Positions 43,687 through 46,125 of a DNA stretch of 47,543 nt are shown piece after piece. This DNA is from a virus. Lineage: Duplodnaviria > Heunggongvirae > Uroviricota > Caudoviricetes. Below the pieces are notes generated by a model. The model searched no databases. It saw only the letters and a program-made list of their open reading frames with translations, and was not told the origin of the DNA. Both the position numbers and the translations under genes were made by a program. Position 1 is the first letter of the stretch. Every line of letters starts with the position of its first letter. The stretch lies in the IMG/VR virus record IMGVR_UViG_2721755644_000004; one strand, given 5' to 3'.

Positions 43687-46125
43687 ATGAGCACTGATAA
43701 AGAAGAATTTGCGCTATATTGCGAAGCAAAAAATGACAAAGTCAGAAAACGTCTGGGAATTAAAGGTGGTTTTTACTGGACTACAGCAAAAAAATTATCT
43801 GTTGCCATCTCCCGCTGCATTACCGCAATGGATGACAACGATTATGATGAAGACGACTTTAAAAAACCCGTTCGCGTCCATTTACCCGTTGTGAATGACC
43901 TTCCACCTGAAGGCGTGTTTGATACCGAATTCTGCAACCGATACGAAAAAGGCGGGGAAGATGGCATTACAATGGTATTTATCGCGCCCTCTCCCTCCGT
44001 GCAGGAGAAACCAGCCAGTACTGACAATACCAACGTCAACGGCGAAGACATGACGGAGATTGAGGAGAATATGCTCCTGCCGGTTTCTGGTCAGGAGCTG
44101 CCCATTCGCTGGCTTGCGCAACACAGCAGCGAAAAACCAGTAACGCACGTTGCACGGGAAGAACTTCAGGCATTACATATAGCACGGGCGGAAGAACTGC
44201 CGGCTGTTACTGCCCTGGCCATTTCTCACAAAACAAAGCTGCTCGACCCGCTGGAGATTCGCGACCTTCACAAACTGGTACGCGACACTGACAAAGTTTT
44301 CCCTAATCCCGGTAATTCAGACCTGGGACTGATAACTGCTTTTTTCGAGGCATACCTGGACGCTGATTACACTGATCGGGGTCTGCTGACAAAAGAGTGG
44401 ATGAAAGGAAATCGTGTTTCGCGTATCACCCGTACGGCTTCCGGTGCAAATGCCGGTGGCGGGAACAAAACCGATCGCAATCCGAATTTAGTACACACCT
44501 TCGATGCGCTGGATGTGGAGATTGCAGCAGCCACACTTCCGATGGATTTTAATATTTATGAAATTCCGGGCAGCGTTTATCGTCGCGCAAAAGAAATCGT
44601 CCTGAAAAAAGAAAGTCCGTTCAGGGAATGGTCCGCAGCACTTCGCGCAACCCCTGGTATCCTGGACTATTCCCGCGCAGCTATTTTTGCACTTATCCGA
44701 AGCGCCCACCCTGAGTTTTATCACTACCCGGGGCGCCTTCAGGGGTATATCAATGCCAACCTGACAGAAACTGATCACGAGAATCCCACAGCTGAAACGC
44801 TCATGGCTGCCCGGCATACACCGGAAAAAGATATCCTGGAAGAAATTAACGGCGGACTGGCTGCTGAGTGCAAAACAGAAGAAGAAAAAAATGATGAAGA
44901 TAACCCGCAACCATCTGGCGCAATGGCAGATGAACAGGCAACGGCTGAAACAATGGCAGCGGATACAGTTGAACATCATCAGGACCCGCAGCCGCTGGAT
45001 GACAAGTCACAGGTAAAAGTTACCGCTGACGAAGTAAACAAAATTATGCAGGCAGCCAATATCAGCCAGCCTGACGCCGATAAGTTGCTTGCTGCCTCTC
45101 GCGGAGAATTTGTTGCAGGGATTAGCGACCCGAATGATCCGAAATGGGTAAAGGGGATTGAAACCCGCGATTCTGTAAACCAGAACCAGCAAGAATCGGA
45201 ACAGAACGACCAGAAAGCGGAACAAAACAGCCCAAATGCGTTACAAAACGAGCCAGAAACGAAACAACCTGAACCAGTAGTGCAACAGGAACCGGAAAAG
45301 ATCTGCACCGCCTGCGGTCAGACCGGCGGCGGCAACTGCCCTGATTGTGGCGCGGTGATGGGCGACGCAACATACCAGGAAACATTCGATGAAGAGAATC
45401 AGGTTGAAGTTCAGGAAAATGATCCGAAGGAAATGGAAGGCGCTGAACATCCACACAAGGAGAATGCTGGCAGCGCTCAGGATCACGCCAGCGATAGTGA
45501 AACTGGCGAGACGGCAGATCCCTTAATTACGGTGAACGGTCATCATGTTATCACATCCACCAGCAGGACGTGTGACCATCTAATGATCGACCTTGAAACC
45601 ATGGGAAAAAATCCTGATGCCCCGATCATCTCAATAGGTGCAATATTTTTCGATCCGCAAACCGGAGATATGGGACCGGAATTTAGTAAGACTATCGATC
45701 TGGAAACTGCTGGCGGGGTCATTGATCGGGACACCATTAAATGGTGGCTTAAGCAATCACGCGAAGCGCAATCTGCCATTATGACCGATGAAATCCCGTT
45801 AGATGATGCACTGTTACAATTGCGGGAATTTATCGACGAAAACTCCGGTGAATTTTTTGTTCAGGTCTGGGGAAATGGAGCCAACTTCGACAACACGATT
45901 TTGCGCCGTTCATACGAACGGCAGGGGATCCCCTGCCCGTGGCGTTACTACAACGATCGAGATGTACGCACAATCGTTGAGCTGGGGAAAGCCATAGACT
46001 TCGATGCCAGAACGGCTATTCCATTCGAAGGTGAGCGCCATAATGCACTTGATGACGCCCGTTACCAGGCAAAATACGTTTCAGTTATCTGGCAAAAACT
46101 GATCCCGAGTCAGGCTGATTTTTAA
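43687..46125 (+). CDS. Large RecE-like exonuclease (812 aa): RecE-like N-terminal two thirds, CxxC..CxxC zinc ribbon, C-terminal DEDDh (DnaQ/RNase T-like) 3'-5' exonuclease domain
   Basis: Exo I IDLETMG, Exo II GNGANFD, Exo [12 protein letters not shown] at C-terminus; acidic low-complexity middle; [16 protein letters not shown]; recombination-module position upstream of xis/int. Confidence 0.75.

Follow-up and report, generated by a model that had tools for sequence, protein, structure and literature searches.

A RecE-type scaffold joined to a predicted DexA-like 3'-5' exonuclease in a lambdoid prophage in which no annealase was detected

In textbook accounts, RecE is a 5'-3' nuclease that is partnered with RecT. 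The N-terminal domain of RecE is known to boost linear-linear recombineering. The catalytic domain of RecE corresponds to its residues ~564/606-866, and its N-terminal domain has been described as being 'of unknown function' (PMC11611040). Here, we describe a gene of 812 codons whose product shares this N-terminal region with RecE and ends in a predicted 3'-5' exonuclease of the DEDDh type. The gene belongs to the viral record IMGVR_UViG_2721755644_000004, a stretch of 47,543 nucleotides (hereafter "the window") that corresponds to a whole 47.5-kb lambdoid prophage inserted between potB and potC, of which identical copies are found in many strains. The open reading frame (ORF) is uninterrupted, starts with an ATG codon and has a GAGG ribosome-binding site 8 nt upstream of this start (Table 1).

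Two other described systems resemble parts of this locus. The first is DexA of phage T4, which acts in the repair of intron-homing breaks and in the scavenging of host DNA, and whose structure was solved by Kang et al. (NAR 2025), who also named a strategy HREX and mention neither prophages nor RecE (PMC12153337). The second comes from a survey of 325 lambdoid phages by Zheng, Casjens, Davidson, Amundsen and Smith (Genome Res 2025): their 'Tritos' functional type has a nuclease and lacks a single-strand annealing protein (SAP), a single-stranded DNA-binding protein (SSB) and an anti-RecBCD function, and 4/4 such phages were Chi-rich (PMC12315714). The same authors reported that RecBCD aids phages that have no Rec module (PMC12315714).

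The window protein was aligned with Rac RecE using BLASTP, which showed that its residues 58-615 correspond to residues 50-592 of K-12 Rac RecE with 58% identity (E 0), so that the resemblance to the RecE N-terminal region, which an earlier note on this sequence had suggested, proved real. The Pfam family PF06630 Exonuc_VIII ('Enterobacterial exodeoxyribonuclease VIII') matched at residues 57-189 (E 2.7e-33), and the best-conserved core of the scaffold was found at about residues 215-395. The exodeoxyribonuclease VIII equivalog NF007259 (NCBIfam) matched residues 1-615 only, corresponding to positions 1-603 of its 877 profile positions, with a score of 907 bits that lies under the curated cutoff of 1269 bits. 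The PD-(D/E)XK nuclease domain of RecE was not found: the protein alignment ends at RecE residue 592, homology to recE at the DNA level stops at position 45527 of the window, no PD-(D/E)XK Pfam family matched in the protein, and a tblastn search with RecE residues 596-866 against the six frames of the window gave a best E of 2.3. The aligned stretch takes in a CxxC-N7-CxxC ribbon, present in K-12 RecE as CNACGQTGGDNCPDC at position 517, as well as the acidic linker. Both elements had been correctly noticed before and are real; we rejected them as novelties of the fusion, considering that the alignment identifies them as inherited RecE parts.

Behind this RecE-homologous segment, residues 631-802 matched PF16473 (Rv2179c-like 3'-5' exoribonuclease) with an E of 1.3e-67 and a score of 227 bits compared to a gathering cutoff of 27, covering profile positions 2-177 of 177. 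The motifs IDLETMG, GNGANFD and HNALDDARY carry the five DEDDh residues (D635, E637, D735, H785 and D790), which align with D7, E9, D119, H186 and D191 of DexA, in agreement with the domain that had been read from the letters alone; D735 is conserved in at least 90% of 30 homologues and the four other residues are invariant among them. The only matches of this domain in the Protein Data Bank (PDB) were 8KEL and 8KEN, both phage T4 DexA (E 8e-8 by sequence and 2.5e-15 with a family profile). An AlphaFold2 (AF2) model of the domain reached a mean predicted local distance difference test score (pLDDT) of 85.9, and its best fold match using Foldseek was again DexA (E 8.5e-11, template modelling score 0.73), followed by RNase T and by the oligoribonucleases Orn and REXO2. 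Rv2179c was retrieved neither by the PDB sequence search nor by the profile search nor among the top 50 fold matches. Since DexA was the best match in each of these searches and Rv2179c was never retrieved, we consider 'DexA-like' a better label than the Pfam name. Altogether, the sequence and the model predict a complete DexA-like DEDDh 3'-5' exonuclease with an intact catalytic pentad. The pairing of PF06630 with PF16473 is already annotated in databases.

The Pfam name of the family, which goes back to the mycobacterial exoribonuclease Rv2179c/RNase AS, raises the alternative that the protein acts on RNA and trims the 3' ends of phage or host transcripts, for example poly(A) tails or a co-transcribed DicF precursor. 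RNase T, Orn and REXO2 are indeed close structural neighbours, and 650 nt upstream of the gene, in the same orientation, lies DicF, which is processed out of a longer RNA. Against this, the solved structures retrieved by sequence or profile are exclusively those of the DNase DexA, which is also the best fold match, RNase T cuts DNA as well, and the one E. coli homologue that was tested acts on DNA (PMC12153337). We therefore regard a dedicated RNA exonuclease as quite improbable.

BLASTP, Pfam and the end of the DNA homology agree on the place of the exchange: as judged from these sequence comparisons, the RecE nuclease is replaced at the domain boundary by a domain from a family of opposite polarity, as had been proposed. 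The junction of 50 nt between the last recE-homologous base (45527) and the first DEDDh codon (45577) contains a Chi octamer on the - strand (45557-45564), which may be a coincidence. A candidate internal start at M633, which would give a free DEDDh domain, was dropped as no Shine-Dalgarno sequence lies at a suitable distance.

The partner that would be expected behind RecE is missing as well. In an identical prophage annotated by PGAP, no gene is labelled as RecT, Bet, Erf, Sak, SSB, Gam or Abc2; no annealase emerged when the unnamed early ORFs were scanned with Pfam and PHROGs; and lambda Exo, Bet and Gam, a pair of RecT proteins and the nuclease domain of RecE, used as tblastn queries on the six frames of the 47.5-kb prophage, gave a best E of 0.39, with Erf, Sak4 and SSB being covered by the annotation and by the hidden Markov model (HMM) scans only. 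The absence of an annealase, which the earlier note had claimed for the interval between this gene and xis, thus extends across the prophage within the reach of these searches. Comparing loci, recT follows the RecE-type nuclease in 3/3 contexts examined (K-12 Rac, Rac-SA53 and Salmonella) and the DEDDh type in 0/6, where xis-int comes directly next. The view that this is not a classical exonuclease/annealase module is upheld by this comparison and matches the Tritos type (PMC12315714).

With a nuclease but no SAP, SSB (according to annotation and HMM scans only) or anti-RecBCD gene in its early-left operon, the window prophage fits the published 'Tritos' nuclease-only type and is, as an observation, not new. 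Residues 270-811 of the window protein correspond to residues 245-822 of the Tritos protein with 68% identity, its DEDDh domain (here residues 621-812) is 99% identical to that of Tritos, and the DNA is 95.5% identical to Tritos from position 45014 on. In the free phages Tritos, Evi and vB_EcoS-640R1, the gene is found at the same place, likewise without an annealase. A trace of this type was also observed in K-12: the ydfE pseudogene of the Qin prophage (L016, 3579-4499) corresponds to the first 256 residues of a Tritos/Evi-type homologue, with 99% identity, and is cut by IS2. Since ydfE is such an IS2-cut N-terminal module, K-12 must once have carried a Tritos/Evi-type gene downstream of dicF-dicB-ydfD.

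The window prophage is also rich in Chi: it contains 11 octamers compared to 1.9 expected, a number that was reached in 0/100 shuffles. Eight of these sites are on the 'top' strand in the orientation of the phage map and three on the bottom strand, and all eight top-strand sites lie in the right 47% of the virion map; the chance that all eight fall in this right arm is ~0.47^8 = 0.002, with the cos position being assumed from the terminase gene rather than mapped. Chi density is thus at host level and biased in orientation, and the correctly oriented sites are confined to the right arm.

Taking these data together, the reading that we tentatively favour, at somewhat below an even chance, is that the gene is a functional member of the early-left operon of a Qin/Tritos-like prophage and may encode a 3'-end exonuclease that works with host RecBCD, Chi and RecA and without an annealase. 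The protein would be made from the early-left transcript after induction or infection; lytic-phase expression is suggested because the gene lies downstream of dicF-dicB-ydfD and because a consensus promoter scan found no promoter-like site in front of it. It would then trim 3' ends of DNA, as DexA does, and would feed no annealase, leaving to RecBCD, Chi and RecA the recombination that gives packageable concatemers. Its contribution could be to process tails or flaps at 3' ends: it might, for example, make 3' overhangs blunt and thereby allow RecBCD to load, or trim the ends that invade.

Several points weigh against this proposal. According to Zheng et al., 3'-5' exonucleases usually reduce rather than promote recombination (PMC12315714). 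The link between Chi richness and a nuclease is a correlation, and 68 phages without any nuclease are Chi-rich too, so that the nuclease may be unconnected with recombination. As to the promoter scan, it looked for consensus matches only. Finally, a role of the scaffold receives no help from structure: nothing meaningful was returned when the region of the N-terminus and linker was searched against the PDB by sequence and by profile, and an AF2 model of the N-terminal 395 residues, built from a shallow alignment, was unreliable (pLDDT 48) and was not used for a fold search.

The earlier note had treated the gene as unusual, which turned out to be wrong, as it is among the commonest prophage genes of E. 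coli. The whole gene (at least 80% coverage) is present in 1230 of the 5426 complete E. coli genomes, with 100% identity in ATCC 25922, and DNA of the DEDDh domain (window 45577-46125) is present in 4048/5426 (75%), in up to seven copies per genome, compared to 1730/5426 (32%) for DNA of the Rac RecE nuclease domain (L007, 5787-6590). We then compared the gene with its 640R1 homologue using the ratio of non-synonymous to synonymous divergence (dN/dS), which was 0.09-0.18 for the scaffold; the corresponding values were 0.15-0.17 for the DEDDh domain and ~1-1.6, near neutrality, for linker residues 561-620 (window 45367-45546). Since dN/dS is low in the scaffold and in the DEDDh domain compared to ~1 in the linker, both domains are under purifying selection. 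Synonymous divergence (dS) itself differs by a factor of ~20 across the gene, which points to mosaicism by recombination.

The scaffold was also found with other endings. Two of three large homologue searches were dominated by near-identical fragments or by Salmonella copies of RecE and gave little diversity. A search of 1.84 billion representatives at 50% identity with residues 1-395 gave 212 relatives, and the best 150 among them were sorted by type of ending (local phmmer). Among these 150, 84 relatives had at least 450 residues: 27 end in a RecE-type nuclease, 14 in a DEDDh domain and 43 in neither. Proteins of this last kind (within P0306-P0455) showed two recurrent C-terminal motifs, LTYRQQLTIAALQGLCANP or KYLEGRLRRLEEVK, which have no Pfam match; scaffold proteins with such non-nuclease tails possibly correspond to the 'RecE-2' proteins of Zheng et al. 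Two further proteins of this last kind (P0309 and P0428) are fusions of the RecE N-terminal region with RecT. The fusion of a RecE scaffold to a DEDDh domain was found in at least 14 clusters at 50% identity; in the DEDDh fusions of Enterobacter and of one further enterobacterial genome, the linker is different and the zinc ribbon is lacking. The ribbon motif is kept in K-12 RecE, Rac-SA53 RecE, Tritos, Evi and 640R1 and is absent from the Enterobacter and L013 fusions. In Enterobacter hormaechei (L012, 4240-6720), the fusion is an 826-aa ORF with a duplicated scaffold segment and without a zinc ribbon; the database protein P0095, a '239-aa 3'-5' exoribonuclease', is a mis-called piece of this ORF.

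This variety of endings is in line with a broader view, which we hold to be rather unlikely, in which the RecE N-terminal region is an autonomous conserved platform with interchangeable C-terminal effectors in lambdoid phages. The effectors would be a PD-(D/E)XK 5'-3' nuclease together with RecT, a DexA-like nuclease without annealase and the two non-nuclease tails, and the scaffold would direct them, for instance to the ends of DNA or to a protein of the host. The DEDDh version, which is the most frequent one in E. coli, could then serve for an annealase-independent handling of ends that is tuned to RecBCD and Chi, or act as a scaffold-targeted defence nuclease.

As for its origin, in prophages of Salmonella and in coliphage Eeyore the gene directly upstream of xis/int encodes a standalone DEDDh homologue of 190 residues, and the fused domain retains the sequence of these standalone homologues from residue 3 on. 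Because these homologues occupy the slot upstream of xis/int and share this sequence, the fusion most probably arose, as far as sequences can tell, when a standalone DexA-like gene beside xis became linked in frame to an ORF encoding the RecE scaffold, with the loss of the RecE nuclease and of recT. In Eeyore (L018, 3733-5070), the 190-aa homologue adjoins a queuine tRNA-ribosyltransferase gene (DpdA-like, a hint of DNA modification) and a deoxynucleoside monophosphate (dNMP) phosphatase gene, and no annealase is annotated at this locus.

An event of this kind could also have left a decaying remnant, that is, a RecE gene from which a deletion removed the nuclease part together with recT, and which now reads through into its neighbour without any function. 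The existence of the two RecE-N::RecT fusions, which look accidental, and the mosaic early regions with their variation in dS would fit such a history. The ORF is nevertheless intact, selection acts on both of its domains, the fusion recurs across the clusters mentioned above, including the Enterobacter versions with another linker, and the gene is present in viable phages and at full length in more than a thousand E. coli genomes. A remnant is contradicted by these selection and conservation data and is very unlikely.

Another alternative is that the protein is a defence or superinfection-exclusion nuclease of the HREX type, which would degrade the 5-hydroxymethylcytosine (5hmC) DNA of incoming T-even phages and spare host DNA. 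Genes that adjoin int are often expressed in lysogens, the close E. coli homologues that we examined sit in prophage-type contexts, and three-quarters of the complete genomes carry the domain. Kang et al. reported that EcD, a DexA homologue from E. coli, degrades T4 DNA in vitro and gives protection to cells when expressed from a plasmid, and that Escherichia holds 38% of bacterial DexA homologues (PMC12153337). The primers for EcD encode MIDTET...TIPETYD, however, which shows that it is a different protein, and it was not among the 185 close homologues that we fetched. Its reverse primer had no exact match in viral or genome collections, and its accession was absent among the cluster members listed; since the reverse primer has no exact match, the EcD gene is probably synthetic. 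The features proposed for 5hmC recognition are the loss of a tetramer-forming Asp (DexA D90) and the conservation of W152 and D169 (PMC12153337). In a two-sequence MAFFT alignment, which at 30% identity is not decisive, these features do not transfer cleanly: D90 corresponds to a conserved Asp (D707), W152 to Tyr755, and D169 lies in an insertion that is absent here. Moreover, the gene is in a repressed early-left operon with no promoter-like site by the consensus scan, has no PADLOC match, and is carried by free temperate phages at the position of recombination genes. We thus see an HREX-type function as unlikely.

It is unlikely to a comparable degree that the protein is a host-takeover or anti-defence nuclease, which would either convert fragments of host DNA to nucleotides during lytic growth or destroy a nucleic acid used in defence, such as a signalling oligonucleotide, a retron multicopy single-stranded DNA (msDNA) or another 3'-ended molecule. 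No lambdoid phage is known to degrade host DNA. The scavenging of host DNA is nevertheless the classical role of DexA (PMC12153337), the family is present in 802 phage genomes, many of them virulent, its structural neighbours Orn and REXO2 degrade dinucleotides, and some relatives have neighbours with functions in nucleotide metabolism, as the dNMP phosphatase and DpdA-like genes of Eeyore. On the other hand, nothing in the window indicates a particular defence target, and this explanation accounts neither for the fusion of the nuclease to a RecE scaffold nor for the replacement of the RecE nuclease and recT. Anti-defence or host-DNA processing had been the guess of the earlier note; it found no direct support, and the published data lead in other directions: such phages are Chi-rich and apparently reliant on RecBCD (PMC12315714), and one distant E. 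coli DexA homologue was reported to have a role in defence rather than in anti-defence (PMC12153337).

The coordinates of the gene, of its parts and of its neighbours are collected in Table 1. A single transcript probably covers DicF, dicB and ydfD, the cell-division inhibitors, together with the exonuclease gene. Elsewhere in the prophage, three tRNA genes (Arg-tct, Arg-tcg and one with a CAT anticodon, tRNA-Ile according to PGAP) were observed at 31159-31408 on the - strand, downstream of a Q-like antiterminator; further genes of this prophage are hokD, iraM, rusA and a DUF968/HNH gene.

Table 1. Positions, in the window, of the exonuclease gene, its segments and the adjacent genes
Feature	Position	Strand	Remark
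Whole gene, 812-aa RecE-scaffold::DEDDh exonuclease (predicted)	43687..46125	+	Identical to RefSeq WP_000102132.1 'exonuclease'
N-terminal RecE-family scaffold, non-catalytic, aa 1-395	43687..44871	+	Includes PF06630 at aa 57-189
Acidic low-complexity linker, aa 396-614	44872..45527	+	Common to Rac RecE and the Tritos-type protein
CxxC-N7-CxxC zinc-ribbon motif, aa 540-554	45304..45348	+	
Swap junction, RecE-homologous segment / DEDDh domain	45528..45576	+	
Predicted DexA-like DEDDh 3'-5' exonuclease domain, aa 631-802	45577..46092	+	Catalytic D635, E637, D735, H785, D790
DicF small RNA	42986..43037	+	Upstream; 76.7 bits vs gathering score 48
dicB	43221..43409	+	Immediately upstream
ydfD/DUF1482	43406..43594	+	Immediately upstream
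xis	46187..46456	+	Directly downstream; no gene between exonuclease and xis
int	46425..47543	+	Directly downstream

Among complete E. coli genomes, the DexA-like domain is thus more widespread than the RecE nuclease domain, and no annealase accompanies it wherever this was examined. If the cooperation with RecBCD and Chi that we favour is true, the protein would be the enzyme behind the strategy described in 2025 of having no Rec module and many Chi sites, and it would offer a handle on the function of the N-terminal domain of RecE. If it is a defence nuclease instead, a large share of E. coli prophages would carry an unrecognised anti-T-even system. In either case, the gene is a cheap experimental target, since both ATCC 25922 and phages that can be cultivated, among them Tritos, carry it.

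Compared with known systems, the window protein resembles Rac RecE (exonuclease VIII, b1350) in its N-terminal ~600 residues, which are homologous, and in its place in the early-left operon, but differs from it in having a DEDDh domain instead of the PD-(D/E)XK 5'-3' domain and in not being followed by recT. T4 DexA (exonuclease A; 8KEL/8KEN) is its closest solved relative by sequence, profile and fold, with all five DEDDh residues aligned, but shares only ~30% identity, is a standalone protein of 227 residues from a virulent phage and has insertions, one of them with D169, that are missing in the window protein. Rv2179c (RNase AS) of Mycobacterium tuberculosis gave PF16473 its name and is a member of that family; it acts on RNA and comes from a non-phage context. 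EcD of the HREX work is an E. coli member of the DexA-like family, but with a different sequence and as a standalone protein. Finally, in the type represented by Tritos gp27, the Evi exonuclease and K-12 Qin ydfE, the first ~245 residues form an unrelated module without PF06630 where the window protein has a RecE-type N-terminus, while the dicF-dicB-ydfD-exo-xis-int gene order, the linker, the zinc ribbon, the DEDDh domain, the lack of an annealase and the richness in Chi are all shared.

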